Assembly (NCBI GenBank): GCA_048939465.1
Contig: JBHLPL010000012.1
Span: 1-26,878 of the forward strand
Length of the DNA: 26,878 nt
From: Promethearchaeota archaeon
GTDB lineage: Archaea > Asgardarchaeota > Odinarchaeia > Odinarchaeales > JBHLKK01
Direction: 5' to 3'
The translations under genes were made by a program, and so were the position numbers. Positions 4,711 through 25,653 of this stretch are shown here, one piece after another; positions within the stretch are counted from its first letter, which is position 1, and every line of letters starts with the position of its first letter. Below the pieces are notes generated by a model. That model had not been told where the DNA came from and ran no database searches. It saw nothing but the letters and a program-made list of their open reading frames with translations.

Positions 4711-4963
4711 CGATTTTTCGCAAGAAGATCCGATCTGTGAATGTGGGGACGAATTTCATCGCGTTTAAATATCTTATTGCATTAATATGGTAACAGGCTC
4801 TTGGACCATATGGTTCAGAGTAGGGCTGTCCAGCAATCAGTACTTGTGCAAAGCTGGAAGTTCTGCCCCAAACCTCCCCAGAATTCATAGCTCCGAAAGG
4901 AGACCTATTGACGATACGGAGAGCGAGGGAGGACATCTCTTGCGAAAGCTGGGGACGGTTCAC
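4711..4963 (+). mobile_element. E1: non-autonomous IS200/IS605-derived mini-element (PATE-like), no transposase or TnpB
   Basis: The left end aligns ungapped to E2 (TTTAT|cgattttt-CGCAAGAAGA-hairpin; about 37/51 identical by hand). The last 39 nt (4925-4963) align ungapped to the E2 end (29/39) and finish TCTCTTGC-GAAA-GCTGGGGA-CGGTTCAC. Internal TTTAAATA at 4764. Confidence 0.7.
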
Positions 4964-5189
4964 AAAGATTAAACCTATCAAATGTCAAACCAGGAGGATG
5001 AGGTTCGACTATTTACCTTTGGACTAATACGGGGACAGTGATGAGGAAAGGATGTATCTTATTTAAGCTCCCTTATCTTATCCTTCTTTTGATTTCGTCT
5101 TGCTTTCAGTCTTAACTTAAATAATAGCGACTGATAAAAGGAGAACACTATCCTTAACGGGTGCCTAGCTTACAGCCGGGGAGATCCAA

Positions 5190-6920
5190 TTGAAACTGGA
5201 GGAAATTGCGCGTAGGTATGCTTTGCTTAACGCAGTCAAGTATGGCGGAAAAGCTAGTTTCAAAGCTGTTATGGGCAAGATTATTTCAGAGCAGCCAGAA
5301 TTTAAATCGAAAACAAGAGAGCTTTCTGCTATACTCAAGAAGATTGTAGAGGAAATAAACAAGATTTCTTTCAAAGAGCAAAAGCTACTAGCATCTCAAT
5401 TTGCTATGCCAGAAAAAGAAGAGGAGGCAGAAGATAAGGTTCTCCCAACCTTACCCAACGTTGATCGTGTTGAGACTGTCGTAATGCGATTAGCGCCATA
5501 TCCATCCGGCCCACTACATATCGGAAATGCAAGGATGGTTGTTCTAAATGATGAGTATGTGAAGCGTTATAACGGAAGCCTGCTTTTGGTATTTGATGAT
5601 ACGATCGGCAGTGAAGAGAAAGTTATCCTTCCTGAAGCCTATGATCTCATCTTAGAAGGACTAGATTGGCTGGGAGCCAAATGGCATAAAACTCTTTACA
5701 AGTCGGACCGACTACTCATTTTTTATAAGTGGTGTAGAGAACTCCTGGAAGATGGATTTGCTTATGTGTGTACCTGTGAGCCTTCCAAGTGGCGAGAGCA
5801 ATACAAGCTAACTAAGCGCCCCTGTCCTTGCAGGAGTCTGAGCGTAGAAGAGAATCTTCATCGTTGGGATAGAATGATTGATGGCACGTACGGTGCAGGA
5901 GAGGCTGCTGTTAGGCTAAAAACGGGCATGAAGGTAGATGATCCTGCACTTAGAGATCACGTAATTATGAGGATTTCAGATCGAGTTCATCCAAGAGCAG
6001 GATCGAAGTACCGTGTCTGGCCACTATTAGAGTTCTCTTGGGCGATTGATGACGCACTCTTGGGCATTACTCATATTCTGCGAGGAAAGGACTTAATCAA
6101 GGAGGATAGGGTTGAAAGAATCATCTGGGATCTTTTGGGATTCAAAGATCGTGAGTTCATCCATTATGGAACGATTAGGTTTTCCGATCTTTCCCTCAGT
6201 AAGTCTCGGTCCCGCCGTTTGATTGACAAAGGAGTCTATCGCGGTTGGACTGATCCCCGAACTTGGAGTCTTCAATCACTCCAGAAACGAGGACTCAAGC
6301 CCGAAGCTGTCAGACAAGCAGTCCTGGATCTTGGCCTGAGTTTGACCGATATTGATTACAGTCCAAGCATACTGTACGCTGTCAATCGGAAGATGATCGA
6401 TCCAGTAGCAAACCGACTGTTCTTTGTTGACATTCCGGTGGAGTTGATTGTGGAAGATGGGCCAGACGATGAAGTAATAGCTGCCAACCCCCCCAGACAT
6501 CCAGATTATCCAGATAGGGGAAAGCGACACATTAGCGTAGCCATTGAAAATGGCCGTTTCTCAGTATACATATCGAAAAGCGATGTTGGGAGATTAAGAA
6601 TCGGAGACGTTATTCGATTGAAGGATTTGGCTAATATTAAGATAAGGTCCATCAACGAAGCACGAATCATGACCTCCTATCATAGCAGGACTATCGGTAA
6701 CGCAAGGCAATCGGATGTGAAAAGAATAATTCATTGGGTTCCCACTGATGATAATGTTCCGCTGGAGGTCGTTATGGAAAACGGGGAGATTCTAAAAGGT
6801 CTTGGAGAACCTGAGTGCATCGATCTATCTGAAGGTAGTATCGTTCAATTCGAGAGATATGGTTTTGTGAGGGTAGATCGCCTGAAACCCGTGACAAGGG
6901 TGTATTTTGCTCACCCTTGA
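5190..6920 (+). CDS. gltX: Glutamate--tRNA ligase (archaeal-type, class I), TTG start
   Basis: MRLAPYPSGPLHIGN (HIGH-like), FDDT, THILRGKD, LSKS (KMSKS-like), VQFERYGF; archaeal N-terminal helical domain. Confidence 0.97.
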   Translation: MKLEEIARRYALLNAVKYGGKASFKAVMGKIISEQPEFKSKTRELSAILKKIVEEINKISFKEQKLLASQFAMPEKEEEAEDKVLPTLPNVDRVETVVMRLAPYPSGPLHIGNARMVVLNDEYVKRYNGSLLLVFDDTIGSEEKVILPEAYDLILEGLDWLGAKWHKTLYKSDRLLIFYKWCRELLEDGFAYVCTCEPSKWREQYKLTKRPCPCRSLSVEENLHRWDRMIDGTYGAGEAAVRLKTGMKVDDPALRDHVIMRISDRVHPRAGSKYRVWPLLEFSWAIDDALLGITHILRGKDLIKEDRVERIIWDLLGFKDREFIHYGTIRFSDLSLSKSRSRRLIDKGVYRGWTDPRTWSLQSLQKRGLKPEAVRQAVLDLGLSLTDIDYSPSILYAVNRKMIDPVANRLFFVDIPVELIVEDGPDDEVIAANPPRHPDYPDRGKRHISVAIENGRFSVYISKSDVGRLRIGDVIRLKDLANIKIRSINEARIMTSYHSRTIGNARQSDVKRIIHWVPTDDNVPLEVVMENGEILKGLGEPECIDLSEGSIVQFERYGFVRVDRLKPVTRVYFAHP

Positions 6921-7030
6921 AACTGACATAATCCTCAGAATGGAATGAAGAAAAAGAGAATAGATCGAAAACTATTTTTCTACCTTTCAGACTATACTAT
7001 ACCTATACAACACCTTAACATCTGGTTATT

Positions 7031-7738
7031 ATGTTCAAGGGGTATGGAATGATGTCAGAGCTCGCTGAGTCGAAAGAAAGTAAAGTGTGGAGAATAGAGC
7101 ACGTTCTTCTGCTGTGGGCTATAGTCCTGATAATGATTGTTTCTTTTAGCTTTATTAATTTGTACAGTATCTGGCTCGGGGTAGCTTTGACTGAGTTTGC
7201 TATTCTGCTTGTAACGGTTGTGGTGGCTACAAGATTCTTTGATGCGTCCCACGATGACCTTGGGGTGAAAAGAACCTCTTCTAAATGGATACTTCTGGCA
7301 ATGGTCTCAAGCATCGCGGCTATTGGATTAGGCTACGCTGGTGTTACTATTCAAGTTCTAATTCTGGGATCTCCTCCCGAATCGTACCAACAATATATGG
7401 ACGTACTGGCACCTCGTGATATCGTCTCTCTAACTGCTTGGATCCTGCTGTCGTTTCTAGTTATTGCGCCGTGTGAAGAGATTTTTTCCAGAGGTTTTGT
7501 GCAGAAAGGATTAGAGAATTCCCTGGGAGGGAACTGGGGTTTGATACTTGCATCTGTTTTGTTTGGCGTACTCCATGTAGAACTGTTTCGTATATTCCCG
7601 ACAGTACTTGAGGGACTTGTAATAGGGACTGTTTACCTTAAATCAGGACATAATGTTGTAGCATCAACAATCTCACATGGGTTCCTGAATTCAATGATCT
7701 TTGTTCTGGTGTATTTCACTTACATCCCAATAGTGTAG
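7031..7738 (+). CDS. CPBP family intramembrane metalloprotease (CAAX/Abi-like)
   Basis: Multi-TM protein with PCEEIFSRG (EExxxR), FGVLH and SHGFLN motifs. Confidence 0.9.
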   Translation: MFKGYGMMSELAESKESKVWRIEHVLLLWAIVLIMIVSFSFINLYSIWLGVALTEFAILLVTVVVATRFFDASHDDLGVKRTSSKWILLAMVSSIAAIGLGYAGVTIQVLILGSPPESYQQYMDVLAPRDIVSLTAWILLSFLVIAPCEEIFSRGFVQKGLENSLGGNWGLILASVLFGVLHVELFRIFPTVLEGLVIGTVYLKSGHNVVASTISHGFLNSMIFVLVYFTYIPIV

Positions 7739-7767
7739 TACGTTGCTGGGGAATAAGCGAATGAATC

Positions 7768-8150
7768 CTATTCTTCCTCAATAAGTTCTTTTTCCTTGAA
7801 TTCCTCTCCCCGCAGAGACAGATAGGCCAATAAGAGGATCCCCGTTATGATTGTCGCGGCGTCCAGTGTTGAAAACACCCGAAAGTCCCTAAGACTCCGA
7901 CTCCGAACCACGCCGTATGCCCATTTTTTAAGACTGTATGACCCGATTGACACCGCGATACCGGGCGATCTCCGGATCAAAGACGCGACTCTGGAATAAG
8001 CTAAGGCTTTATAACAGGATCACAACAGACTGCCCAGAGAGCAATAACCTGCGGTCATGGTAAACCTGCGGGCCCCCAGATTACTCCAGATAGAAAAATC
8101 AAGATGCTTAGCAAAATCGCTCCCAAGGGCTCGATTCTGTCCTCAGACAA
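7768..8150 (-). pseudogene. Probable frameshifted small membrane-protein gene, split over track ORFs 8055-8291 and 7768-7980
   Basis: Fragments EPLGAILLSILIFLSG, LKKWAY and ITGILLLAYLSLRGEEF lie in different frames with stops between them. A 9-bp direct repeat (AACCTGCGG at 8046 and 8063) sits at the first break. The pattern resembles the archaeal 'RPLGV...LKKWAW...ILYYL' membrane proteins (from recall). Confidence 0.5.
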
Positions 8151-8335
8151 AACTTCTCTCTCATCATTTGCTCTGACTCTTTCTTGAAGGAGACCCCTAT
8201 TATTCTTTCCAATGAAATGAAGAAGTCTGTTCCAAAATCCCTCTGGCCCGACGATTGTTAGTAGAAAATCTTTTAAACTACTTGCAAGCAATAAAGACCC
8301 GCTTCCAAGTCAATAAAAAGGAGGTAAAAAGCAAC

Positions 8336-10468
8336 TTGATACCCTACGCTGCGTGGCTCTGTTGGGCTATTCCTCTCATTGGCTCGGTCCTTACGCCGGT
8401 ATTTGCCAAAATCAGTCCAAGAGTTAGGGATTACGCGGCAGTTGTCTTTGGAGCTTTAGCCATGATCATGGCAATCTCCATGATACCAGACATTGTGGCC
8501 GGTCAGGTTGTAACGCTCGACGGGATCCCTCATGAAATACCTTATGACTGGGTAGTACCATGGATGCCTACGATAGGACTTAACGTGGGTGTTCTTATAG
8601 ATCCACTCAGTGTCCTGCTTGCAAATGTGGCAGCTGATATCGGGTTTCTTATTCTCCTTTATTCAATAGGATATATGCATGGAGATCCAGACAAGACTAG
8701 ATACTGGTTTTTCATGCAATTCTTTGTTGGCTCCATGGTCTTGCTCGTAATGGCGGATAACTTCCTCTTGATGTTTATAGGTTGGGAGGGTGTAGGACTG
8801 TGTAGTTATGCACTGATTGGTTTCTGGCACAAGAAAACTACACCAAGCCCCGTCCCTGGATATGCATCGGAGGGCGACTATAATGCACACGCCGGACTGA
8901 AAGCATTTATAGTAACCAGGGCCGGCGATATTACTCTCCTGATTGCAATCCTGATCATCTTTGTGACTGCAGGAACTTTCAACTACATTGAGCTCCAGAG
9001 CGATTTTGCTTGGATGAGCATTCTTTCAGGTATGGGCCTTTCCTTAATCGTACCTCTGCTCCTCCTTGGAGGCCCTATAGGAAAATCTGCCCAATTCCCT
9101 CTGCACGTTTGGCTTCCAGAAGCCATGGCTGGTCCGACGACAGTTAGTGCACTGATTCATGCTGCAGCCATGGTTAAGGCTGGTGTCTATCTGGTTGCAA
9201 GGAGCTTACCTATATTCCATGAAGCGTTTATTACTCACGGTTATCCAGAACTCTATACCTTCTTTCAGGTTGTTTCCTGGATCGGAATATTCACTGCATT
9301 TATGGCTGCTACCATGGGCATGGTGGCCAAAGAGATTAAGAAAGTCCTGGCATTTTCAACCATAAGCCAACTCGGATATATGTTCTGCGCACTAGGTATA
9401 GGCGGAATGGCAGTAGAATTCGGAGCTGGATTCACAGCTGGTGTATTCCACCTGGCAGCTCACGCGATTTTCAAAGCTCTCCTGTTCTTGGCAGCCGGTT
9501 GTGTGCTTCACGCCACCGATACCAAAGACATGTTCGAGATGGGGGGTATTAGAAAGGAGATGCCTTGGACTTACCGAACTATGCTTGTGGGCGCTCTATC
9601 GCTCAGTGGAGTGCCCTTCTTGTTTGCTGGTGGTTGGAGCAAAGAAGCCATCCTTGTTGCCGCTTTGGAGACTGATCAGATCTTGCTCTTCGCTGTGGCG
9701 GCGCTCACAGCAGCCATAACAGCCTTTTACAGCCTCCGTATGCTCGGAATAACCTTCTTTGGACCAAAGAGCGATTTTCTAAAGAAAAGAGAGGCTGAAG
9801 GCAAACATGTTCACGAAGCCCCACTCAATATGCTTGTCCCTCTACTGGTACTTGCTGGGTTCACAATATTGATAGGCGTTCTGTCAATACCGGATTTCTT
9901 TGGCTTGTTTGGCTTTGAGGGAGCCTTACATACTTATTTCGGAGCAATACTGGGTCACGGCCCCGCAACACTTACTGCTCCGATCCTGAACCCGAGTGTA
10001 CAGATCGCATTGGGGACAAGTCTCCTAATGCTTGCCATCGGCTTTGCTCCTGCGCTAATCTTATACATCCGAAAAGATGGGAAAACCGCGAAGCCAACCA
10101 TAAAACCGATCTACCAGTTTCTCCGTAACCGGTGGTATATAAATGAGGCCTATCGTCGGGTCTTTGTTCGGGGAGCGGTGAAGCTTGGCAGTGGTCTGTA
10201 CAAATATGTTGAAACAAGAGGCATCGACAGATTTAATTATGCAGTTGCAGGCGCAGCCAAGCGTGTTTCAAACTGGCTTTATAGGTATCCGGAGATGAAA
10301 GGTCTGGAAGGCTTTAATAGAGGAGTTGCTAAAGCCTTCTCATCGTTCGGAAAGAGATTTAGAAGACTACAGACAGGCGTGCTATCCTATAATATGATTG
10401 GTGTATTAGCTGGTATGATTGCCATAGTTTCAATCCTAGTATTGTATTTCCTAGTAATAGCTCCATAA
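8336..10468 (+). CDS. nuoL: NADH-quinone oxidoreductase subunit L / MrpA-like antiporter subunit; start probably TTG 8336 rather than 8255
   Basis: FIGWEGVGLCSYALIGFW, GKSAQFPLHVWLPEAMAGPTTVSALIHAA, AFSTISQLGYM, HAIFKALLFL. TATA-like TTTTAAA at 8271-8277 and SD GGAGGT at 8320-8325 lie inside the track ORF's first codons, which supports the later start. Confidence 0.92.
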   Translation: MIPYAAWLCWAIPLIGSVLTPVFAKISPRVRDYAAVVFGALAMIMAISMIPDIVAGQVVTLDGIPHEIPYDWVVPWMPTIGLNVGVLIDPLSVLLANVAADIGFLILLYSIGYMHGDPDKTRYWFFMQFFVGSMVLLVMADNFLLMFIGWEGVGLCSYALIGFWHKKTTPSPVPGYASEGDYNAHAGLKAFIVTRAGDITLLIAILIIFVTAGTFNYIELQSDFAWMSILSGMGLSLIVPLLLLGGPIGKSAQFPLHVWLPEAMAGPTTVSALIHAAAMVKAGVYLVARSLPIFHEAFITHGYPELYTFFQVVSWIGIFTAFMAATMGMVAKEIKKVLAFSTISQLGYMFCALGIGGMAVEFGAGFTAGVFHLAAHAIFKALLFLAAGCVLHATDTKDMFEMGGIRKEMPWTYRTMLVGALSLSGVPFLFAGGWSKEAILVAALETDQILLFAVAALTAAITAFYSLRMLGITFFGPKSDFLKKREAEGKHVHEAPLNMLVPLLVLAGFTILIGVLSIPDFFGLFGFEGALHTYFGAILGHGPATLTAPILNPSVQIALGTSLLMLAIGFAPALILYIRKDGKTAKPTIKPIYQFLRNRWYINEAYRRVFVRGAVKLGSGLYKYVETRGIDRFNYAVAGAAKRVSNWLYRYPEMKGLEGFNRGVAKAFSSFGKRFRRLQTGVLSYNMIGVLAGMIAIVSILVLYFLVIAP

Positions 10469-10492
10469 AAACTCAACTCGGAGGAAAAATAG

Positions 10493-11992: not shown

Positions 11993-12052
11993 CTTCCAGA
12001 TGAATTTCGGACATAAACGTTTGCTGGGTTATCTACCCATTCCTATTTTTAT

Positions 12053-12395
12053 CTATCTTCCGCAAGAAGACTCCGTCAGAGAGGGTGGAGATGAATTCGA
12101 TGTGTTCATGTAATTTTTCGGAAATCAAGTCTTGGGTAAGACACTCAAAAGAGGAAGGGTTCTCAACGGTGTGGGCGTGAAACCCGGCCTGGGAGAGCGG
12201 GTCTTGTGGGTACATCCTGCTTGACAGGGCTGTCCCGTGCCTGTGGCACGTTATGGAGTGAACCAGCCCGAGGGTCTACCTCCTGCGCAGCCGTGGATTC
12301 GGACCACAGAACCCCCTCTGCGAAGCCAAAGTGTCCTCAGACGCAGGAGGCAGAGAGAGGGAGGAGACTCCTTGTGAAGGCTAGGGGTAGTTCAC
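12053..12395 (+). mobile_element. E2: non-autonomous IS200/IS605-derived mini-element
   Basis: TTTAT at 12048-12052, left hairpin CTCCGTCA-GAGA-GGGTGGAG at 12071-12090, right end CTCCTTGT-GAAG-GCTAGGGG-TAGTTCAC at 12368-12395. Interior is GC-rich with several stems and has no convincing ORF. Confidence 0.75.
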
Positions 12396-12411
12396 TGTTC
12401 TTCCGCCTATA
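12220..12411 (+). ncRNA. Candidate omegaRNA-like scaffold plus guide within E2 (boundaries approximate)
   Basis: Hairpins at 12223-12234 and 12236-12250, a 13-bp stem 12275-12287/12342-12354, and internal GTGAAC (12258) complementary to terminal GTTCAC. Confidence 0.4.
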
Positions 12412-12738
12412 TTCCTCTAGAAGACCCTATGAGTAAGGGTGGGAACTGATTGCGTTGTGCTTAAGTATTCTCCTGGATATTTGATTTCGAGGTCTGTGAC
12501 CTTGAAGGCTAAATTCGCATAATTGTTCAAAGAGATGCATCAAAGATCTTGGGAATTCCGTTAAGGACTTCTGTTCTTGCCCGCGCACAAACCTCAGGTA
12601 TCTCGCCCTTGTTAATCATGAACTCCGATGTTTTCCCGTTACCGCTCGTTGATACTCCTCGGGGATAAAAGCAGGAATAGATACATTTTTAGAATAAACC
12701 CGTATATTATTAATTGATAAGATCTTGGAGGACAACCG

Positions 12739-13305
12739 ATGATTAATCCAGGTAAGGACCTAGAGAAGGCAATCGTGGATATTGTTAAAGGTTTGGCCTC
12801 GGTTGTAAAGAAACTGGATGATTCTACTAACCAGCTTACAACAAGAATGAGTGATTTTGAAAAGCGGGTTCTGTCAAGGTTAGAAAAACTCGAGAGTCAA
12901 TTTAGTGGACTGGAAAAGACTAAGGATCTTATCGATGAAATCAGCTTATTGGTACCAGTTCTACAAGTATCCAATCTTTTGAATAATGTAAAGGGAATGG
13001 TACAACCATCTAGACCTCTTACACCAATGAGGAAGGAAATAGTAGCACCTGCCCGAGTTCCAAGACCGGCGCCGACAAAAGACATTGAACCTACTCCCAT
13101 GCCCGCCCAAGAACCTCTGTTTGAAGAGCCAAAAGCGCTTTTTAAGGAAGAGGAATCAGCTCCAAGTTCCCCTTCTTTATCCGATGAGACGGAACCTGAT
13201 GAGAAGGGAGAACCTGAAGTGGTGGTTGGCGAGCGTGTCCCTTCTTACATTAAGAAGAAAGTAAAGCCAAAATCTATATGGGAAGGTATCCGTGACGAAG
13301 AATAA
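12739..13305 (+). CDS. Hypothetical protein: N-terminal coiled coil, Pro-rich/acidic disordered linker, short C-terminal motif
   Basis: Heptad-rich aa 1-90, then PSRPLTP...PARVPRPAPT...EEESAPSSP, ending KPKSIWEGIRDEE. SD GGAGG and AT-rich promoter upstream. Confidence 0.85.
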   Translation: MINPGKDLEKAIVDIVKGLASVVKKLDDSTNQLTTRMSDFEKRVLSRLEKLESQFSGLEKTKDLIDEISLLVPVLQVSNLLNNVKGMVQPSRPLTPMRKEIVAPARVPRPAPTKDIEPTPMPAQEPLFEEPKALFKEEESAPSSPSLSDETEPDEKGEPEVVVGERVPSYIKKKVKPKSIWEGIRDEE

Positions 13306-13326
13306 TTCGGAACGGGTTGAAGGTCT

Positions 13327-13734: not shown

Positions 13735-13754
13735 TATTTACGCCTCCAGGTTTC

Positions 13755-14638: not shown

Positions 14639-14875
14639 CAGGGGTCTTGTGCGAGTAAACTACTCCTCCCTTGCGGAAGGAACTTATGACTGTGCTTGGC
14701 CGCAATTCCTTTTCAGGCTTTGGCTTCATCGCACGTCAAGTCAGGGCAGTTTACGGTGCCCCAGCCCGGTAATCCGCATGTAGCGTCGGGCTTAAGAGTT
14801 TACCTCATCCGTTCCCATTCTCCTTGCAGGTCTTTAACCGTTTCCACATCGGAGAGAGGTGTGCCTTTAGACCTA
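14639..14875 (-). ncRNA. Candidate omegaRNA-like scaffold plus guide within E3 (boundaries approximate)
   Basis: Hairpin GGGCA-CCGTAAAC-TGCCC displays GTAAAC (14754-14749), complementary to terminal GTTTAC. GAAGCCAAAG is shared with E2 at the same distance from the end (72 vs 73 nt). Stem TAGGTCT/AGACCTG. Confidence 0.45.
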
Positions 14876-14957
14876 TTAGCACGTTTGGCACGGGCCTATT
14901 TTAAGACCACTCAGTCCCTCTCCGTCCTCTCGGACGGAGTCTCCTTGAGGTGGCTCA
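14655..14957 (-). mobile_element. E3: non-autonomous IS200/IS605-derived mini-element (left boundary approximate)
   Basis: Minus strand: perfect left hairpin CTCCGTCC-GAGA-GGACGGAG (14939-14920; 24/28 identical to the E2 left core), CTTAAAAT at 14905-14898, right end TTCCTTCC-GCAA-GGGAGGAG-TAGTTTAC (14682-14655). Confidence 0.75.
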
Positions 14958-15142
14958 GACGAATGAAGCTGGTGCCGAAAAATCCTCATATATTAGAAGT
15001 ATTTATGATTCTGTTTTCTGGGTAATCTTTGTTGCGAGTTATATGACGAATACGTTTATATCTGGAGATAAGTACAACCAATATTGTGAAAAGATGAAAA
15101 ATAAACAATGATACTCAAGGATTCATCAATCATCAGCTCCCA

Positions 15143-16054: not shown

Positions 16055-16174
16055 TCATCAGGTAGTCTTGTCAATTAATTTTGGAACGGTTGCTTCTCCG
16101 ACCGTTTAGATTTCACGGGCAAATCTTATTAATGAGGGTCTTTCTTAAAACCCTCGTATTGTTTTGTTCCGGGG

Positions 16175-17116
16175 GTGTCTGTACTGTCGGAGGAGGAGCG
16201 TGCAGATTACATCTGGATGGACGGGAAACAGGTCAAATGGGATGACGCCAAAGTTCACATAAAGGCCCATGTACTATCCTATGGGACCGGAGTATTTGAG
16301 GGGATACGAGGTTATGCTTATAATGATAATGTCAACATCTTCAGACTAAGAAAACACTTGGATCGGTTGTATTATTCTGCCATGATTTACAGGATGAATA
16401 TACCTTTTACGAAAGAGGAATTGAAGAATGCTATTGTCAAGCTCATTATAGACAATGAGATGAGAGTAGATTGCTATATTCGTCCTCTCGTATATCGTGG
16501 CTATGGCCCCTTTGGCGTGAATCCTTTAAGGAGCCCAATAAATGTGGCAATTTATGTCATTCCAATTGGAGAATACTTGGGAAAAGGAGCCACAAAACGT
16601 GGCATAAAATGTTTGGTCTCATCGTGGCAGAGAATTCCATCCCATGCAATCCCAATTCATGCCAAGGCATGTGGGAATTACCTGAATTCTGTGATTGCAA
16701 GACTCGAGGCCATAGAGAGGAACTATGATGAAGCCATATTCCTGGACCATCGAGGGTTTATTTCGGAAGGAACCGGGGAGAACTTATTCGCTGTAAAAGA
16801 CGGAAGAGCATCAACACCACCAAGCTATGCATCGATACTAATGGGCATAACGAGAGACTCCTTAATTACTCTGCTCAAAGAAGAACTCCACATTGAGGTT
16901 GTGGAGACTGATATTACCCGAGCCTCACTCTACGATATGGATGAGGTTTTCATTTGTGGAACTGCAGGAGAGATAACGCCAGTTGTAGTCATAGACCATA
17001 CGGAGGTTGGGGATGGCAAACCGGGCCCCTTAACAAAGAGATTACAGCGAGTATATCTCGATACAGTACGTGGAAAAATCTCAAGATATTCTAACTGGAT
17101 TATGCCCGTGTATTAG
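16175..17116 (+). CDS. ilvE: Branched-chain amino acid aminotransferase (PLP fold IV), GTG start
   Basis: LSYGTGVFEGIR, YIRP, KACGNY (PLP Lys), EGTGENLF, ILMGITR, CGTAGEI. Confidence 0.95.
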   Translation: MSVLSEEERADYIWMDGKQVKWDDAKVHIKAHVLSYGTGVFEGIRGYAYNDNVNIFRLRKHLDRLYYSAMIYRMNIPFTKEELKNAIVKLIIDNEMRVDCYIRPLVYRGYGPFGVNPLRSPINVAIYVIPIGEYLGKGATKRGIKCLVSSWQRIPSHAIPIHAKACGNYLNSVIARLEAIERNYDEAIFLDHRGFISEGTGENLFAVKDGRASTPPSYASILMGITRDSLITLLKEELHIEVVETDITRASLYDMDEVFICGTAGEITPVVVIDHTEVGDGKPGPLTKRLQRVYLDTVRGKISRYSNWIMPVY

Positions 17117-17118
17117 AG

Positions 17119-18051: not shown

Positions 18052-18119
18052 AATTCTCTCCCTTAGTTTCTGGAATTAATATGACCGTCGAACCTGGACG
18101 ACTGATTTCTATACCGGCA

Positions 18120-20024
18120 CTAATAGAACTCAAAAGGGGAAACATAATCCCCGTGTTTCTTTCTTACAGCCAACAGTCTCCGTCTTTGCTCTTTCAGCAA
18201 TCTAAATACCTCTATGGGTGTGTAGAGAGTATCAGTCGTGTATGTTTTCATTAACCTATCACTCTTCGCTAGATTTTCTGGGACTCTCAGTGTGAATTGC
18301 TTAATATAGTCTTCTTTTGAGTAGTTCTTGTCAAGGACTTCTTTGAATAACCTCTTAAGGTCTTCATGTTTTGGTATAAGTCCTGTTGGTGTCTTTGCTG
18401 CTTCAATCTCCTTATGAGATCTTAATTCCATCCATTTGAGCCAGACTGCTTTGTCAATTTTATCATTTACGAAATTCCCTTCAGAGTCTCTCAAGAAATA
18501 ATTCACAGAGAAAATCGGAGGAGGCTTATTTAGCATAGTACCGAATTCAAGATGCTTTTCAATATATCTTTCCAGCGTTATCGATAAGAAATCTAGGTTG
18601 GACATTGGATTAAACATTCTTACGCCCACCCTTCCTAAACTGGCCGGCGTGGTTTCGGACTCCAGAGACGCACCCTTTGTGATTACGCCATGAATCCAAT
18701 CAAAAGCCTCCTCAACAGGGACCCATGTGTCTGGGTCTCTGCCACCATATATTATTCCGCCTATCTTGACGCCTTCAGGGTCGTTTAATCTTGGATCTGC
18801 ATTTTCCAGGAGTTTCATATCAACAGTAAACCGAGCATTCTTATGAGCAGGAGGTATTTCATTCCCCTCAGCATCTTTTTTTCCTAAAGTCCACTCTCCG
18901 GAGTGATTGATTCCTCTTTCTGGGACTTTGCCATCTTTTCCAATCCAGTAGACACTCCCGGTTTCATTAACTAAGATATTCGAAAATATAATCTCACCTG
19001 TTGAATTTAGCACTCTCCATAATATTGGATCGTCTTCCGAGTTAATACCCTGTATTATTCCAAATATCCCTTTCTCAACATTAGCTGCTCTTAATTCACC
19101 GTCTTTCTCTCTAAGATACGCAATATCATCTCCGATTATGCTTTCGCCTTCCACCATTGAAGTAGATGTCTTTCCGCACAAGGAAGGAAATGCACCCGCA
19201 AAGTAAGTTACTCTTCCATAAGGACCGTGAACACCCATTATGAACATGTGCTCAGCCAGCCAGCCTTCCTTTGATGCCTTGTTTATCGCCAATCTTAGCG
19301 CCAACTTCTTAAGTCCGATAGTATTCCCGCCATATTGGGTATTCGCACTATATACTGTGTCATCTTGGAGATCAATGTATATTCTGCGCTTTTCAACGTC
19401 TTTACTTACGTTGTTTTCAAGTCTCCCTTCTGAATGTATAAACTTAAAGAAGCGAGCACCTCTTCCTAGTCTTATGAATTCATCATATCCTGGCCTATAA
19501 AGCAAGTACTCACTGTGAGCCACGTAGCTGGAATCGGTAAGTTGGACGCACGGTATGGAGAATTTGGAGTTCATGGGACCTAACGTAAAGAATAGTATGT
19601 AGAGCTTGTGTCCCTTCATAATGTTCTTCAAGATAGTGTGTATCTCTTTAAGTCCCTGCTTCCTATCCATCCAGTTTATGCCAGGGCCCAAATACTCCTC
19701 TTCATCTAGAAGAAATTTCGTCTGTTCCTTGTCCCTGGCTTGATCGTAATAACCATCAAAGTGAGCGGTATGTCCCTCCGTAGCAAGTACCATCTCCTCC
19801 CCTGTTCTTGCAGCCTCTTCTCGAATGTACTGCGTGTCTTCCGGGGAATCTGAAGAAACAAAGGCGCTATCTGGATTACAATGTTTCAAATACTTCGAAA
19901 TAAGTCTGTCAAGTTCTGGATTATTTATTGCCTTGAGCCTCTTATAGTGCTCGTCACTCAGCCTAGTTCTAAGTATGTTGTGTGCTCCGCCTATTTCCTG
20001 TTCCTCTTCAGGCAAATAAACCAC
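18120..20024 (-). CDS. pckG: Phosphoenolpyruvate carboxykinase (GTP), archaeal type
   Basis: YGGNTIGLKK, WLAEHM, FPSLCGKTS, IGDDIA, HKNARFT, IIYGGRD, FNPMSNLDF. Confidence 0.97.
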   Translation of the reverse strand: MVYLPEEEQEIGGAHNILRTRLSDEHYKRLKAINNPELDRLISKYLKHCNPDSAFVSSDSPEDTQYIREEAARTGEEMVLATEGHTAHFDGYYDQARDKEQTKFLLDEEEYLGPGINWMDRKQGLKEIHTILKNIMKGHKLYILFFTLGPMNSKFSIPCVQLTDSSYVAHSEYLLYRPGYDEFIRLGRGARFFKFIHSEGRLENNVSKDVEKRRIYIDLQDDTVYSANTQYGGNTIGLKKLALRLAINKASKEGWLAEHMFIMGVHGPYGRVTYFAGAFPSLCGKTSTSMVEGESIIGDDIAYLREKDGELRAANVEKGIFGIIQGINSEDDPILWRVLNSTGEIIFSNILVNETGSVYWIGKDGKVPERGINHSGEWTLGKKDAEGNEIPPAHKNARFTVDMKLLENADPRLNDPEGVKIGGIIYGGRDPDTWVPVEEAFDWIHGVITKGASLESETTPASLGRVGVRMFNPMSNLDFLSITLERYIEKHLEFGTMLNKPPPIFSVNYFLRDSEGNFVNDKIDKAVWLKWMELRSHKEIEAAKTPTGLIPKHEDLKRLFKEVLDKNYSKEDYIKQFTLRVPENLAKSDRLMKTYTTDTLYTPIEVFRLLKEQRRRLLAVRKKHGDYVSPFEFY

Positions 20025-20142
20025 CTAGAGCGTAATTACCATTATCTGCCCATGCAATATTTATAAGATTTGTCGAAAGAACCAGTCGAAACGATAAACA
20101 TTAAAAGTCCGTTGCGCATAGTCAGTTTTGGAGGGCAAAATA

Positions 20143-20694
20143 ATGCAAATAATGGAATTCTTCATGTCTCTTGCAGATTTCAAAGGGCCAATCTTGATTA
20201 TTGCAGGTCTCATTTCTGCGATCAGTATATTTCAATGGCTGGCTGGACGTGATAAGGAAGAAGAATGGAAAACAACAATAAAATTGGCTGCCTTCATAGG
20301 CTTTTTTGTAGGGATAATATCCTTGATCGTTGGCGGGACCGTATGGAGTATGGGAGTTGCGGACTGGATAACGATTGCGCTTTTCATAATAGTCGGGTTG
20401 GCTTTGTGTTTGGGCCCGATTAAGAAACTGCCTCTGGCCGGGATAGCTGCACTAGCTATAGGCAGTTTGGTTGCTGCTTTCGTTTCAGGATTCTTTGGTT
20501 CAATTAAGATCGTGGCAGCTGTCTTCGTAATTATCTTCATATTAGTATTCGTATTTGCCAAAGCAATTGAAACCATATTGGATGGCATTGGTACCGTACT
20601 GAGCTTCCCGCTAGTATCAATTCCCTTAGGTCTGATCTGCATTGTTCAGGGAGTACTGCTACTCTTAGGGACTTCACTGGCTGCGCTCTTTTAA
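20143..20694 (+). CDS. Hypothetical polytopic membrane protein (about 6 TM); start probably ATG 20143
   Basis: Almost entirely hydrophobic helices; GGAGG SD precedes ATG 20143 (the track begins at TTG 20128). Confidence 0.85.
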   Translation: MQIMEFFMSLADFKGPILIIAGLISAISIFQWLAGRDKEEEWKTTIKLAAFIGFFVGIISLIVGGTVWSMGVADWITIALFIIVGLALCLGPIKKLPLAGIAALAIGSLVAAFVSGFFGSIKIVAAVFVIIFILVFVFAKAIETILDGIGTVLSFPLVSIPLGLICIVQGVLLLLGTSLAALF

Positions 20695-20920
20695 ATACAC
20701 TCTTTCTCTATTTCTTTAGCTTCTCTATTTCACGCAGACCCAAGCAATAGGATTTCTTCTCATTTCTGGATTTATATTGCCGAAAGCTTTAATGATAATT
20801 CAATCACTGAGAGTATCGCAACCTAAAGTCGAATGATACTAAAAAAGCTTAAATTACCATTCGCAATAAGTATATATTGGGTACTTGAGCTGAAACATAT
20901 GTGACTAACTATTAGCCGTA

Positions 20921-22408
20921 TTGAGAAGACCGCAAAAGAGGTATTCACTGTTGTTAGACGGACTCCAGAAGAGCAGTTTGGAGAAAACGGGAATTGATTT
21001 GCTAGACAATATGTTAGAAGGTGGTCTTCCCTCTTCAACTGCGATAGTGGTCGTAGGGGAGTCAGGAGTCGGAAAGTCTATAATGTGTCAGAAATTCCTT
21101 CATGAGGGACTGAAGAACGGTGATGGGGCGATATACGTAGCTTTGAGTGAATCCTCAAATACGATCGCCTCCACGATGAAACGTATGGGATGGGATATAA
21201 CCAATTATCTGGAAAATGAGCAGTTGATGTTTATCGAAAGTTACCCCTCGAAAACTCTCTTTGTTGAAGGCAATTACTTTGACCCAAGAAATCTCTCTCT
21301 CCTAAACCTGAAGATTGCTTCCGCATTTAGCTATATGAGAAAGTATGACAAAGTGCGTCTTGTGATAGATTCATTGTCCGATCTAATTGAGTATGACAGA
21401 GAAGGTAGATATATTGGGAATTTCCTCGATGAACTCATAGCAAATATTCATTTGGACAATGTCTCTTGTCTATGCACACTAACGCCCGAAGTCCAACCGG
21501 AGGAAGTGAGAGAACAAGTCCAAAGCGGCTTCGACGGTGAGATTGAGTTTAGGTTCACTGAGGTTGCAGGAAGCTACCAAAGGCAGGTTAGAGTAAAGAG
21601 AGTGAGAGATGAATATCGTAATTCAAAGTGGACAAGCTTTGCATTGACAAACAATGAGGGAATGGTTCCTCTGTCGGCGACGGGAGAAGGAAGCGAGCCA
21701 GAAATACTTGCTCTTGCGCCGCAAATATACGATGTTTACATAATCGACAGAAACGGCTATTGCTTATTTAATGCGAAAACCAAAGATGCTGAATATGAAG
21801 TGGACGTAGTCTCTGCTTTTTTGACTGCTGTATCAACCTTTGCAAAGCAGATGCTACCTAGCGAAGGCGAATTATCAGGAATCCGGAAGGGAAATCTACA
21901 GATACTGTGCGAATGGGGACAAAATATCTGTGTTACCGTAGTATGTACAAACGATACTGCAGAAGATGAAGTAAGATACAAGATGAGAATTCTCGCAGAT
22001 ACGTTTGAAGTGAGATTTAATCATTTACTTGAGTATTGGGACGGAGACCTCTCTGTGTTCAAACCAGTGGAGCGATTGGTAAGAAGATACTTCGGCTCAC
22101 ACCTCTCCCGGATAGATGATGGTGATGCTACTGAACCTCGAACACAACTATACTCCATCGATGATCTCGGCTCAAAAGCATATTGGGATTACTACAGGGA
22201 TTCGAAGGGCTTTGGACTATTTAGGAGAAAAAACCAAATTCCAATTAATGAAGTTGACAAGCTAATTGACTTAATATCTGCAGAGAGGCTGAGTGTTGAT
22301 GAATTGGAGAGAGCCATTGAAAAGGGTAGAATAAAATTAACAAAAGAACTAGCTATGAGGGCATTGATGAATCTGCATAGGAGAGAGATCATTTATTTGA
22401 TATCTTAA
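20921..22408 (+). CDS. KaiC/RAD55-like RecA-fold ATPase fused to a longin-type domain and a probable C-terminal winged helix
   Basis: KTGIDLLDNMLEGGLP, Walker A GESGVGKS, Walker B LVIDS. Then IYDVYIIDRNGYCLF...VSAFLTAVSTFAKQ...FEVRF...WDGDLSVF, the typical Asgard longin pattern. Start uncertain (TTG). Confidence 0.9.
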   Translation: MRRPQKRYSLLLDGLQKSSLEKTGIDLLDNMLEGGLPSSTAIVVVGESGVGKSIMCQKFLHEGLKNGDGAIYVALSESSNTIASTMKRMGWDITNYLENEQLMFIESYPSKTLFVEGNYFDPRNLSLLNLKIASAFSYMRKYDKVRLVIDSLSDLIEYDREGRYIGNFLDELIANIHLDNVSCLCTLTPEVQPEEVREQVQSGFDGEIEFRFTEVAGSYQRQVRVKRVRDEYRNSKWTSFALTNNEGMVPLSATGEGSEPEILALAPQIYDVYIIDRNGYCLFNAKTKDAEYEVDVVSAFLTAVSTFAKQMLPSEGELSGIRKGNLQILCEWGQNICVTVVCTNDTAEDEVRYKMRILADTFEVRFNHLLEYWDGDLSVFKPVERLVRRYFGSHLSRIDDGDATEPRTQLYSIDDLGSKAYWDYYRDSKGFGLFRRKNQIPINEVDKLIDLISAERLSVDELERAIEKGRIKLTKELAMRALMNLHRREIIYLIS

Positions 22409-22428
22409 TTTTGTAATCTGAAAAATAG

Positions 22429-23448
22429 GTGGGGTCGATGGCAAAAAGTATCAGAAACACCATTCTAAAGTTGAAAGTCATGGGAAAGGCTCTCTTCTCT
22501 GACATAAGATCCTTAGATAAAGGAACCCGTCAGCTGAGCGAGAGATTACTGACACAGATCGCCATAAAGGAAGGCTATCCGAGCCTGCTTATGAGCCCAC
22601 TAACACTCGAACAGATTATCGAACAGATGAGATACAAGAATACAGACCTTGCTGCTGATTTTATGAAGGTCCTAGTTGAAATTGGTGTAATTCGAGAGAA
22701 TGGTGGAGTATATGTATGGAAAGGAAAGAAGATTAAGATAGGAAAACATGAGCGAAGACTGCAGAAAATAGGGTTAGCTTTTGCCAGAATCTCGGAGGTA
22801 TTCTCCACATATATGCCATATGCATTACGAGGACACGGAAAAACACGCGAGTTTACTAGAGAGCTGCTACTTGCTATTTGGGATAGTTTATATTCAAGTG
22901 AATTCTACAAATTTGCAAGAGGACTTGTGATCGACTGGGCAAGACTCCCTAAGTATCAAACGATCCTTGACATAGGGTGTGGTACTGGCTGGAGCACAAT
23001 TAACATAATACAAAAGACCAATGCTGAAAAGGTATTTGCAGTAGATCGTTCACAGAAAGCAATTGATATTGCGAAAGAGAACATCAACATCACAGGATAC
23101 GATGACAGAGTTGAGTTCATCGTTTGTAATATTTCGAAGAAGCCTCCTACTGAAAAAGAGGTAGACGGTGCATTCTCTTCATTGTTTTTCCACTGGCTCA
23201 ATCGAGACGAGATTGTCCAGGCCCTTAAAAATATTAGAGCCTCATTGAAGCCTGGAGCTATTTTCTGTGGATTACAGCCCTTAAACAAGAGAACTGATAG
23301 AATGGCTTATTTTGATGTTTTGTTTCGTGCCTCCATTGACTTTAAAGGGTATCCTCAGAGGGATTTCTTTATTGAAGCCTTCAAAAATTCCAATTTCGAA
23401 GATCTGAGTATATGGTCGAACGGAATTTTTTCATGCAAGGCAATCTAA
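22429..23448 (+). CDS. Class I SAM-dependent methyltransferase with N-terminal helical/wHTH domain; start possibly ATG 22438
   Basis: ILDIGCGTG, FAVDRS, FFHW, LKPGA; 20 nt downstream of the KaiC-longin gene. Confidence 0.9.
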   Translation: MGSMAKSIRNTILKLKVMGKALFSDIRSLDKGTRQLSERLLTQIAIKEGYPSLLMSPLTLEQIIEQMRYKNTDLAADFMKVLVEIGVIRENGGVYVWKGKKIKIGKHERRLQKIGLAFARISEVFSTYMPYALRGHGKTREFTRELLLAIWDSLYSSEFYKFARGLVIDWARLPKYQTILDIGCGTGWSTINIIQKTNAEKVFAVDRSQKAIDIAKENINITGYDDRVEFIVCNISKKPPTEKEVDGAFSSLFFHWLNRDEIVQALKNIRASLKPGAIFCGLQPLNKRTDRMAYFDVLFRASIDFKGYPQRDFFIEAFKNSNFEDLSIWSNGIFSCKAI

Positions 23449-24749
23449 GAGACCTCCTCACCAACGTTGGAAATTATATGTCTAGTTCTTGCAGAAGGGG
23501 TTTCCTTTATCTTTTCTGTAAATCGGACCTTTAAATCCGCCCCTTTGAAGAGCTCTCCACAAATCCTCTCAACTTTTTCGGCAGTTCTATCGCTGAAATC
23601 CTTACCTTTTACTAAATACACTTCTATTTTATCTCTTTGTGGTTGTATTACTTGATAGTTCTCGAGCTGCAGGATGTCTCCTAATTCTCCAATAACTATT
23701 TGTGGATAAACCAGCTCCCCGGCAGGGAGTCTGATAATATCCTCAGCTCTCCCCTCTATAACATCAATTAAAGGAAATGTTCTGCCACAGCTGCATTCGT
23801 TGCCACCAGCTCTGACGATGTCCCGTGTATCATATCTGATTAGTGGCATCGCCTCTCTCATCAATGGCGTCAGAATAAGCCGCCCTCTCTCACCTTCAGC
23901 TACCGGTTCATTATTTTTGTCTACCACTTCCATGATAGCTGTGTCGATATTCGTATGAAGTCCCATATGTTCAGAACATTCATATCCAAAAACATTAATC
24001 TCGGTTATTCCGTATGCATCAAAGACTTCAGCATTCAATGATTCTTCAATTCCTCTTCTTATTTTATCATTAAGAATCTCAGAGCCTGTCACTACCGTTC
24101 TAAGATGCGGGAATTCCAAATCATGGTCGGCCATGTACTGTCCTATTGAATATGCCACTGATGGATATACACTTAGTAATGTGGGATCGTATTTCAGAAG
24201 CTCTTCAACTATTTCGGGCAAGGGCTTTTTTATTGAAATCATCTTTACTTTGGCAAGGAGTTTGACGATTCCGCCAAAGAGCGTTTTTACCAAGGTCGCT
24301 CCAATAAAAGGCCCAATCATGAGCAATTGAGCTACCCTATCTTTCAAAGTTCTAAGACCTGCTGCTTCTGACACTCTTGAAGCTGTTGCTGCAACAATCG
24401 CTATGTCGTTTTCTGTGAAAAAGATCTCTACGGGCTCCCCAGTACTTCCTGAAGTGGTTACTCTGATTAATTTCGTATCTTTGACTTCTTTTGAAATCAT
24501 ATTGTTATACCTTAACGTACTTTTCTTGGTCAGAGGCAGTTTTCGTAAATCCTCTTTCGTGTTTATGTCATCTGGCTTGAGGCCAAGTGAGTCGAATAAT
24601 CGATGATAGTATTCAGTGTTTTCGTAGGCTATATGAACCTCTTTTTTCAATTCCTTCAACTGCAGTTTCTCGAGTTCATCCATTTTCTTGTACGGGTTTT
24701 TTCTCAACTTGCGCCTTGCTCTAAGAAGTTTGTATAACATGCCCCCCAC
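23445..24749 (-). CDS. Phenylacetate-CoA ligase-family (PaaK-like) adenylate-forming enzyme
   Basis: TTSGSTGEP P-loop, DAYGITE, RYDTRD, CSCGRTFP, EGRAED. The substrate cannot be inferred. Confidence 0.9.
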   Translation of the reverse strand: MGGMLYKLLRARRKLRKNPYKKMDELEKLQLKELKKEVHIAYENTEYYHRLFDSLGLKPDDINTKEDLRKLPLTKKSTLRYNNMISKEVKDTKLIRVTTSGSTGEPVEIFFTENDIAIVAATASRVSEAAGLRTLKDRVAQLLMIGPFIGATLVKTLFGGIVKLLAKVKMISIKKPLPEIVEELLKYDPTLLSVYPSVAYSIGQYMADHDLEFPHLRTVVTGSEILNDKIRRGIEESLNAEVFDAYGITEINVFGYECSEHMGLHTNIDTAIMEVVDKNNEPVAEGERGRLILTPLMREAMPLIRYDTRDIVRAGGNECSCGRTFPLIDVIEGRAEDIIRLPAGELVYPQIVIGELGDILQLENYQVIQPQRDKIEVYLVKGKDFSDRTAEKVERICGELFKGADLKVRFTEKIKETPSARTRHIISNVGEEVS

Positions 24750-24877
24750 CTTCTTCTCTTTTCACCTATTATGTTTTCTAGTGATATAAAAGCTCTAGTA
24801 CGATTTGTTGTATTCTCTGCTTAACTAAGCAAAGGGTTTTTTATAAAAACAAAGACATACTTTCTATCTGAATTCGC

Positions 24878-25350
24878 TTAGGCACAGGCAGCTTCTCCAA
24901 TTCTTGAGATCATGTGCCATCTCCTAGCAGAGGGAGTTTCTGGCATCTTCTCTGTGAAGTCAATATTCACATTTGTGCCCTTAAAAACGTCTCTGCGAAA
25001 TTTCTCAACTTTCTTACCGCCCCCATCAATGAAATATCTACTTCACTGTCCTTCTCTATGGTGCCCATTTGAGGCTTTACGCCTCGATAATTCCTAAGCC
25101 CCTTAATTTCGCCCCACTCACCAGTTGAAGTTCGTGGATGGATGAAACTTCCATCGGGGGCTTAATCGCTTCCTCAACTCGCCCCCCCATGATATCAATT
25201 GAAGGAAAGGTTCTTCCGCAGTTGCATTCATTTCCACCGATTCTGACAATGACGTATGTCAGATCTGATTAACTGCATTGCCTCTCTCGAAGACAGTGTT
25301 AAAATAAGTTTTCTTCTCCCCCCTTCAGATATTGGCCTATGTTAAATATC
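24878..25350 (-). pseudogene. Degraded 3' fragment of a paralogue of the adjacent PaaK-like gene
   Basis: Minus-strand fragments KLILTLSSREAMQLIR, VRIGGNECNCGRTFPSIDIMGGRVEE, PDGSFIHP and KKVEKF...FKGTNVNIDFTEKMPETPSARRWHMISRIGE* are colinear with aa ~295-434 of 23445-24749, with frameshifts and a stop. Confidence 0.85.
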
Positions 25351-25653
25351 GGCTGGAGATCCCGTCCGTAGGGGTGGGGAGGAAAGCCGACCTCCCGCAA
25401 CATTTGAGTTTTTAAATCCTGATGAAGACTAAATATGGGTGGAGCATCAGGAAAGACAATCGTCGTTGCTGTTAAATCGGCTGTGGTGCGGGATCATTCT
25501 CAAGGTCAAGGTCTCAACCTCTTTTCCCAGTCTACCAGGCCCTGAGTCTCTGTAAACAGGCTCTTTCGTCCGGGTGATGAGGTTTTGAGTGGTGCGGTGC
25601 ACTATACTCGGCCTCTGATGGAAAGCTCCCTGCGATAGCTGGGAGTAGTTTAC
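25351..25653 (+). mobile_element. E4: non-autonomous IS200/IS605-derived mini-element (left boundary approximate) abutting the PaaK pseudogene
   Basis: Left hairpin TCCCGTCC-GTAG-GGGTGGGG at 25360-25379, TTTTTAAAT at 25409-25417, right end CTCCCTGC-GATA-GCTGGGAG-TAGTTTAC at 25626-25653. Confidence 0.72.

Follow-up and report, generated by a model that had tools for sequence, protein, structure and literature searches.

The window analyzed here, a 26,878-nucleotide stretch of a Promethearchaeota archaeon genome (contig JBHLPL010000012.1), contains four elements, E1 to E4, and a truncated fifth. All five are protein-less IS200/IS605 derivatives (PATEs). E1 to E4, at 253-343 nt, are too short for a tnpA or tnpB gene and lack terminal inverted repeats. 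No tRNA was found in the whole window, and a search of the whole window against Rfam 15 gave no match with an E value of 1 or less, which is weak evidence because Rfam contains few omega-RNA models. The elements, their TAMs, TATA-like boxes and putative guides are as follows.

4706..4710, plus strand: TAM TTTAT of E1 (G002 empty site; TAM logo over 98 left ends)
4711..4963, plus strand: E1, 253-nt PATE (family alignment, empty site, same-site copy in G001)
4764..4771, plus strand: E1 TATA-like box TTTAAATA, matching 8/8 at the position that is fixed in the family
4964..4979, plus strand: E1 putative guide, 16 nt of flank directly 3' of the right end
12048..12052, plus strand: TAM TTTAT of E2
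12053..12395, plus strand: E2, 343-nt PATE (13-copy family alignment)
12105..12112, plus strand: E2 degenerate box TTCATGTA, a 5/8 match only; E2 relatives carry TTTAAAT
12396..12411, plus strand: E2 putative guide (flank)
12411..~12520, plus strand: truncated fifth element that lacks a right end and retains just the left end, the first stem and box CTTAAGTA (12460-12467)
14639..14654, minus strand (read 14654-14639): E3 putative guide (flank); predicted E3 target TTCAT/TTCGT followed by TCGCACAAGACCCCTG
14655..14958, minus strand: E3, 304-nt PATE (18-copy family; absent from both congeners)
14898..14905, minus strand: E3 TATA-like box CTTAAAAT, aligned with the C70 box 22 nt before the tnpB ATG
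14959..14963, minus strand: E3 TAM TTCGT, a variant of TTCAT (G002 empty site)
25336..25340: pentamer CCTAT at the upstream TAM position of E4
25341..25653, plus strand: E4, 313-nt PATE (small family, about 4 full copies)
25409..25417, plus strand: E4 TATA-like box TTTTTAAAT, a 7/8 match, weaker in other E4-family copies
25654..25669, plus strand: E4 putative guide (flank)

The boxes of E1, E3 and E4 lie exactly where a sequence-only reading of this DNA had placed them; the same reading had claimed none for E2, in which a degenerate box is nevertheless present. The fifth element was recognized from an nhmmer match (C10:12406-12507) and a left-end alignment, with its start at 12411 and its limit near 12520 set by eye. 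The right ends of E1 to E4 close with GGTTCAC, GTAGTTCAC and GTAGTTTAC before the 3' flanks, and the four flanks all differ from one another, as had been noticed earlier. The best-preserved copy is E3, in which the left hairpin (8 bp), the box, the scaffold and the right hairpin (7-bp stem) are all intact. E4 has a strong right hairpin, and the subterminal hairpins of E2 are weak. According to the family alignment E1 has had its first stem-loop deleted, and its left hairpin has decayed and has no stable DNA form; E1 and E2 are visibly decaying.

These elements belong to families that are dispersed across the genome as single units rather than forming one repeat-spacer locus. The 1.96 Mb genome contains about 68 right ends and 98 sequences that resemble a left end; it is a metagenome-assembled genome (MAG) that is 91% complete and in which assembly may have lost near-identical repeats. 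Terminal-only micro-elements of about 47 nt are also present. The family limits are sharp, with column information in the element alignment falling to zero beyond TTYAT...GTAGTTYAC. The TAM logo of the 98 left ends reads T-T-Y-A-T, and the right-end terminus TTYAC differs from the TAM TTYAT by one base.

Comparison with two congeneric genomes, G001 and G002, reveals the sites as they are without the element. E1 is absent from G002, where the syntenic empty site has TTTAT joined directly to AATCGTTAAACC (beginning AATCG). E3 is absent from both G001 and G002, and the G002 empty site has ATTTGT joined directly to TCCCACAG (beginning TCCCAC). For E1 and E3 in these two genomes the joints are exactly TAM followed by flank, with no target duplication, and insertion is scarless, 3' of TTYAT/TTYGT. 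At the E1 site G001 carries a copy in which the TATA-like box is kept. Flank matches of the E4 locus in the congeners are rearranged. A G002 sequence on contig C171 that is 84% identical to E3 was rejected as its orthologue; the flanks share nothing and it is a paralogous insertion. Insertion sites differ between the congeners, so these families have moved about within the genus.

Three tnpB genes and one tnpA are encoded elsewhere in the genome, as the sequence-only reading had anticipated for TnpB. Joined across a 77-nt overlap, contigs C70 and C55 give a single full-length element whose only gene is tnpB. The left end of E3 aligns with the left end of this joined element, and the E3 body aligns with its C55 part, over about 190 nt at the 3' end of tnpB (from the RuvC-III codons through the stop) and the right end; judged from this alignment, the E3 body is the omega-RNA-coding region. 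A longer derivative on contig C5 retains zinc-finger codons. The joined TnpB keeps GVDLG, IEDL and SDLNGARN and so a D-E-D RuvC triad. The TnpB of C2 (383 aa), which matches ISDra2 TnpB with an E value of 1e-60, keeps D, E and D as well as the zinc finger. The third, on C105, shows VGDL at the aligned position of the RuvC-II glutamate, with G for Glu; this could be a rearranged site of the kind described in TnpB-type proteins (PMC10691335) or an inactive site. A weak sixth PF07282 match, on contig C60, was discarded as a TnpB candidate, being a membrane zinc-ribbon protein. The Y1 TnpA is the single PF01797 match in the genome (C105:1180-1545, E value 7.5e-37).

At its left end E2 matches the corresponding end of the C2 element. 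An E2 match on C105 was set aside; it falls in a micro-element of about 47 nt beside the left end of the C105 element. The 91%-complete assembly yielded no full-length element with a cognate TnpB for the E1, E2 or E4 families. Within the window, as judged from sequence, only E3 combines all parts intact with a demonstrable cognate TnpB.

The TATA-like box is a property of the families and not only of the copies in the window. Among the 85 copies that bear a left end, at least 7/8 positions agree with TTTAAATA in 42 and at least 6/8 in 67, compared with 3% and 27% of shuffled sequences, and in nearly all matching copies the distance between left end and box is the same. The box is therefore beyond chance, and shared ancestry accounts for part of the signal. 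In an archaeal promoter the transcription start follows the center of the TATA box by about 26-27 nt. In the full-length C70 element 22 nt separate the end of the box, ATTAAATA, from the tnpB ATG, and the C105 tnpA has the same spacing of 22 nt from box to ATG, as is expected of leaderless mRNAs. By its position, the box that follows the left hairpin is the predicted tnpB promoter of the parent element itself. No purine-rich BRE is evident by eye upstream of the box, and in the E3-family alignment the box is conserved no better than its neighboring columns. If transcription begins some 22 nt beyond the box and the 16-nt guide is included, the predicted transcripts are 186 nt (E1), 237 nt (E3) and 230 nt (E4), in agreement with the 185-235 nt estimated earlier.

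We consider it probable that the elements are PATEs that carry the promoter of their parent together with an omega-RNA module, and that this module has a selfish role in homing and retention. An internal deletion of almost all of tnpB would have joined the left end to the last ~200 nt, a history that the E3 alignment documents and that family resemblance suggests for E1, E2 and E4. The left end would thereby have brought along both the hairpin recognized by TnpA and the TATA-box promoter, from which a leaderless tnpB mRNA would start in the full-length element. Transcription from a point about 22 nt past the box would yield what is in essence a ready-made omega RNA, and because this transcript is predicted to cross the right end into the flank, each copy would have a different 16-nt guide. 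TnpB made elsewhere would cut the site vacated after TnpA excision, and recombination would restore the copy. This homing and retention model is a published one, as is the finding that PATEs often encode omega RNAs that need TnpB in trans (PMC10055086), and the summary of Altae-Tran et al. 2021 given in PMC10691335 describes stand-alone omega RNAs that work in trans.

Since the left end carries the predicted promoter of the parent, the omega-RNA region follows it and TnpB is encoded elsewhere, a cassette architecture is supported. The earlier suggestion that each element is a self-contained cassette holds to the extent that a left end with the predicted promoter is joined to the right part that would encode the omega RNA, and fails where the box is degenerate (E2) or the hairpin and stem-loop are lost (E1). 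The further suggestion of protection against excision loss fits well, in that the guide and the upstream TAM rebuild the element's own empty site. As the guide beside a TTYAT TAM matches only this empty site, the role is likely to be selfish.

It is possible, if rather doubtful, that the elements are instead inert fossils, of PATE origin but with box and scaffold as mere leftovers and with no present transcription or TnpB loading. Several observations favor this reading. Pairwise identity among copies reaches 87% at most and the median to the best paralogue is 79%, so the copies are old and show no recent activity. E1 is 71% identical to its same-site counterpart in G001, the flanking intergenic DNA being 70% identical (orthology is uncertain); its divergence is thus close to the neutral intergenic rate and gives no sign of constraint, and E1 has lost its left hairpin and suffered an internal deletion. 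The box of E2 is degenerate, and three of the four families are without a cognate TnpB found. Single-copy folding z scores are -3.4 for E1, -1.3 for E2, -1.1 for E3 and +0.2 for E4, so that only E1 stands out and folding of E2 to E4 is weak.

Against the fossil reading stands the E3 family. Its consensus fold, obtained with RIBOSUM-scored RNAalifold, has 62 pairs with 87% of cells pairing, and double changes occur at 19/62 pairs, compared with 10.8 ± 2.4 in shuffled alignments (0/500) and 6-14 in slid controls, the structure being derived from the same alignment. These compensatory changes are above both controls. The E2 family gives 16 double changes against 11.9 in shuffled alignments (40/500), with one slid control higher and the structure again from the same alignment. 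A default alignment fold of alignment A2, without a covariation term, gave a different, poorer structure and was not used. The modules of E3 are intact, the genome holds an intact cognate tnpB element with D-E-D, and insertion sites that vary between congeners speak for families mobile within the genus.

When only TTYAT counted as the TAM and whole 16-mers were compared, the 68 flank guides were as far, by minimum Hamming distance, from all 13,105 TTYAT-adjacent genomic 16-mers as shuffled guides were. Perfect matches of these guides to the genome number just two, both self, and the best TAM-adjacent genomic match of the E1 guide has 5 mismatches. A search with 12-nt seeds, at most one mismatch and a TAM pattern also taking TTYAC returned mostly self matches. 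The four window guides with their TAM gave 0 matches each in IMG/VR under exact matching, which diverged protospacers would escape. The host and virus searches proposed with the sequence-only reading thus returned neither a host excess over shuffles nor an exact viral match. Gene-less cassettes outnumber tnpB genes about 20 to 1 in this lineage. We regard as highly improbable a self-promoted pool of guide RNAs that a few TnpBs use beyond homing, for instance to police loci or regulate neighbors, in which the difference between TTYAC and TTYAT would be the switch that averts self-cleavage.

The same searches bear on a guide repertoire co-opted by the host, in which TnpB or a nuclease-dead, TldR-like protein would be sent to other targets, in the genome or in viruses, to serve regulation or defense. 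Some 65 cassettes to 3 nuclease genes, and a C105 TnpB whose VGDL at the RuvC-II glutamate could mean a rearranged or inactive site, are what such a repertoire might look like; nonetheless we give it hardly any credence. The guides are no closer than shuffles to TAM-adjacent genomic sequences and those of the window lack exact viral matches. They are simply the flank at the landing site and drift along with it, as E1 and its G001 counterpart illustrate. Two TnpBs have the full catalytic triad, and the weak sixth PF07282 match is no further TnpB. The CRISPR-array-like repertoire proposed earlier is accordingly not borne out for dispersed single units without TAM-adjacent targets beyond chance or exact viral matches, and a nuclease-dead reading sits badly with D-E-D kept in two of three TnpBs and with guides that lack TAM-adjacent host targets beyond chance. 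Scarcely credible, too, is the idea that the elements are mobile promoters reading out into a co-oriented downstream gene, for although all four window copies are co-oriented with the next gene, the genome-wide count is 32 co-oriented to 32 opposed, and in tandem intergenic regions the antisense excess of 20 vs 10 is not significant.

Elements of this kind have been described before (Altae-Tran et al. 2021; Meers et al. 2023), and the promoter and omega-RNA module proposed here involves no new mechanism. What the window adds is a documented archaeal case of a TnpB transposon reduced to a promoter and a guide-RNA module, complete with exact ends, TAM, empty sites in sister species and a parent element. 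It may aid the annotation of Asgard genomes, in which such repeats could pass for novel structured RNAs, and the mining of compact TnpB/omega-RNA pairs with ties to the ancestors of Fanzor nucleases in eukaryotes.

TldR systems (PMC10705468) likewise combine an omega-RNA-like guide with a protein of the TnpB fold; however, they have an inactivated RuvC, are immobile and have guides that match a host promoter, features that we did not find here. In OMEGA systems (Altae-Tran et al. 2021), stand-alone omega RNAs are, as far as the account in PMC10691335 describes them, mobilized loci without an effector or transposase, in genomes with effector loci of their own, as in this genome; those are bacterial and were shown to work in trans, whereas here the architecture alone is known. 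The PATEs of Haloquadratum walsbyi and other haloarchaea (Dyall-Smith et al. 2011, PMC3119063) are also archaeal and transposase-free, have palindromes near their termini and leave no target duplication. They too are IS605-type core deletions that are heterogeneous and far outnumber their parents, and their terminal-only versions of about 50 bp recall the micro-elements of about 47 nt found here. They belong to another phylum and to other sequence families, and their description pre-dates guide RNAs and is without omega-RNA or promoter analysis. Among the closest counterparts are the PATE-like elements of Geobacillus stearothermophilus (Meers et al. 2023, PMC10055086), which are similarly gene-less, have ends in common with tnpB-bearing elements and depend on TnpA and TnpB in trans, with the flank as guide and the donor joint as target. 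In contrast to these, the copies described here are old (70-87% identity), and their mobility and guide function are predicted from sequence. Their host is an archaeon, and the promoter would therefore be a TATA box inherited, within the left end, from the promoter of a leaderless tnpB.

Aligned with one another, the four gene-less repeats of the window, E1-E4, have left parts (...CGCAAGAAGAC-hairpin-GAATT...TTTAAAT) and right ends (...GTAGTTYAC) in common, and every string quoted from them by the sequence-only reading was located at its position in the window. When the whole genome (1.96 Mb, 152 contigs, 91% complete, with the window as contig C10) is searched with blastn and iterated nhmmer, each proves to belong to a dispersed family; the totals are about 68 right ends and about 98 sequences resembling left ends. 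The family alignments have sharp limits: the flanks carry almost no column information, which climbs at the 5-nt TTYAT directly before the left end (the TAM) and returns to zero immediately 3' of ...GTAGTTYAC.

4711-4963, plus strand: E1, of a type with about 10 copies in the genome
12053-12395, plus strand: E2, of a type with 13 full copies
12411-12520, plus strand: a truncated fifth element
14958-14655, minus strand: E3, of a type with 18 full copies
25341-25653, plus strand: E4, of a type with about 4 copies
Genome: a further family, the 225-nt type
Genome: micro-elements of ~47 nt, about 13-16

The truncated element begins 15 nt past the right end of E2, so that the 16-nt 3' flank forming the E2 "guide" extends into another element's TAM. 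Its left end, its box (CTTAAGTA, 12460-12467) and a first stem-loop of the E1-type family are present; a right end is lacking. Micro-elements combine the opening bases of the left end with a single hairpin and the tail of the right end, TAGTTCAC; they are preceded by TTYAT/TTTAC and carry neither promoter nor scaffold; examples are L010:997-1043 (C105), C73:~16326-16370, C23:~2007-2050 and one nested in the copy at C48:18817-19219.

Syntenic comparison with two congeneric genomes, G001 and G002, found the E1 site empty in G002, where the TAM TTTAT abuts the flank AATCGTTAAACCTATC, and occupied by a copy in G001; the E3 site is empty in both, ATTTGT being followed directly by TCCCACAG.... These empty sites fix the ends of the elements and show scarless insertion 3' of TTYAT or TTYGT without target duplication, the signature of IS200/IS605 elements. 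E1 is present in the window's genome (G000) and G001 and scarlessly missing from G002 (window 4711-4963, G001:C1 and G002:C69 compared), a genome much nearer to G001 (94% coding identity) than to G000 (79%). Two histories would account for the pattern: the element was naturally and precisely excised in the G002 lineage, or insertion at this one TTTAT happened twice independently.

Pfam-profile searches of the window's genome identified three tnpB loci and one tnpA. The C2 tnpB (383 aa) stands alone, and the C105 tnpB (427 aa; L008:985-2268) immediately follows the genome's only Y1 tnpA. The third lies at two contig ends, C70:1-1010 and C55:5690-6043; because these overlap by exactly 77 nt, they make up one full-length tnpB-only element, encoding a TnpB of about 381 aa, that was split by the assembler inside the repeat. 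The C2 protein matches ISDra2 TnpB at 1e-60 and retains the RuvC Asp (GVDVG), Glu (FENL) and Asp (DRDVN) together with both CxxC pairs, and the joined C70+C55 protein retains GVDLG, IEDL, SDLNGARN and the zinc finger. The C105 protein, whose ORF extends to within the right-end terminus, has VGDL at the aligned position of the RuvC-II catalytic Glu, and its site could be rearranged, as is known for other archaeal TnpBs (PMC10691335), or inactive. A weak sixth PF07282 match was rejected as a TnpB, being a membrane zinc-ribbon protein. The 91%-complete assembly yielded no parent element for the E1, E2 or E4 families.

The joined element reads TTCAT, then CTGAGACACC...hairpin...GGAATTGAGGTGGAC ATTAAATA, then 22 nt and the tnpB ATG; in the C105 tnpA, ATTTATAG likewise precedes the ATG by 22 nt, the box-to-ATG spacing expected of leaderless archaeal mRNA. 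The E3-family box YCTTAAATAC aligns with the tnpB box of the joined element, and in the E1 and E2 families the corresponding position holds GTTTAAAT. Among 85 left-end-bearing copies, the box TTTAAATA is matched at 7/8 or better in 49% and at 6/8 or better in 79%, at a nearly constant position, against 3% and 27% in shuffles. The TATA-like boxes that had been proposed as internal promoters are therefore real, conserved in position and inherited; they would be the transposon's own promoter and are not newly evolved. Genome-wide, with crude ORF calls, the left-end-side gene points away from the element in 44 cases and toward it in 18 (p 0.001), and the right-end side is even (32 vs 32). There may be a preference for landing near promoters, perhaps through the TTTAT found in TATA boxes. 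Sorted by class of region, again with crude ORF calls, element counts match the intergenic-length expectation.

From about position 95 on, E3 can be aligned to the final ~190 nt of the full-length element, comprising the codons for ...CGHTLNSDLNGARNIAQRY... to the stop, the right hairpin and GTAGTTTAC. Zinc-finger codons survive in a longer derivative, on C5. In characterised TnpB systems the tnpB 3' end and right end form the omega-RNA-coding region, and the E3 body corresponds to that region. Folded as a consensus with RIBOSUM scoring, the 18 E3-family copies give 62 pairs in 9 helices, among them a long-range AAACU/AGUUU closure adjoining the guide; on this fold 87% of cells are paired, and double changes occur at 19 pairs, against 10.8 +/- 2.4 in shuffles (0/500) and 6-14 in slid controls. 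Since the structure was derived from the same alignment, this covariation lends the model modest support. In the E2 family 16 pairs have double changes, against 11.9 in shuffles (40/500), and one slid control scores higher. Single-copy folding energies are mostly unremarkable, and an Rfam scan of the whole window gave 0 matches. The proposed cassette architecture of promoter plus guide-RNA part has support from homology to the tnpB-bearing element.

The guide is whatever flank adjoins the right end. When the 68 flank 16-mers were compared with all 13,105 TTYAT-adjacent 16-mers of the genome, their minimum-distance distribution was that of shuffled guides, and the best TAM-adjacent match has 5 mismatches for each of E1-E4. 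Exact TAM+guide scans of IMG/VR with the four guides of the window gave no match. The suggested CRISPR-like or TldR-like repertoire, the latter serving a nuclease-dead repressor, is therefore not supported. The only perfect matches in the genome belong to two decayed copies (G000:C69:28752 and C77:51872) in which mutation has turned the right end itself into a TAM (TTCAT/TTTAT), making their own flank a perfect TAM-adjacent target. By contrast, TAM plus guide reconstitutes the empty site of each element, precisely the sequence targeted under the published homing model (PMC10055086). A putative function as homing guides is plausible on this analysis. Where G001 carries its copy at the E1 site, the guide differs at 3 of 16 positions, having drifted along with the flank. 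At all right ends the last five bases, TTYAC, differ from the TAM TTYAT at the final base only, which may prevent self-targeting of occupied sites.

E3 is intact in all modules (8-bp left stem, 7/8 box, scaffold, right hairpin); the genome encodes a cognate TnpB for it, and neither congener has the element. In E1 the box is perfect, but the left hairpin no longer folds and 26-57 nt of the first stem-loop are missing; its divergence from the G001 copy is that of neutral flanks (71% identity against 70%; coding 79%). E2 has lost its box, and E4 has the best box within its small family. The highest identity between any two copies in the genome is 87%, although the MAG assembly may have lost younger copies.

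Window genes include thermosome, ThiDN, an archaeal-type GluRS and a very strong Ras-family GTPase (1e-56), consistent with the Asgard assignment. Upstream of E4, 24750-25340 (~590 nt) lacks a long ORF, and 24892-25336 matches G001:C1 in rearranged order. Both congeners have a Clp1-type P-loop kinase gene (463 aa; PF16575, 4e-43; G002 copy L043:2289-3680) between an Mrp/Nuo-like gene and the gene that follows. Of this kinase gene the window keeps only the first ~31 codons (12654-12746, minus strand), adjoining E2 and the truncated element, and the 91%-complete assembly shows no other copy; the loss suggests an element-associated deletion.

Protein-less IS605 derivatives have been named PATEs in haloarchaea, where ~52-bp terminal-only forms are included (PMC3119063), and a 2021 report, summarised in PMC10691335, described stand-alone omega RNAs that act in trans. 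The central idea of the sequence-only reading is therefore an independent rediscovery of a described arrangement, to which the present analysis adds the empty sites in congeners, the 77-nt contig join that yields a parent element, and the genome-wide guide test. The ~47-nt micro-elements resemble the 52-bp terminal-only PATE of Haloquadratum.
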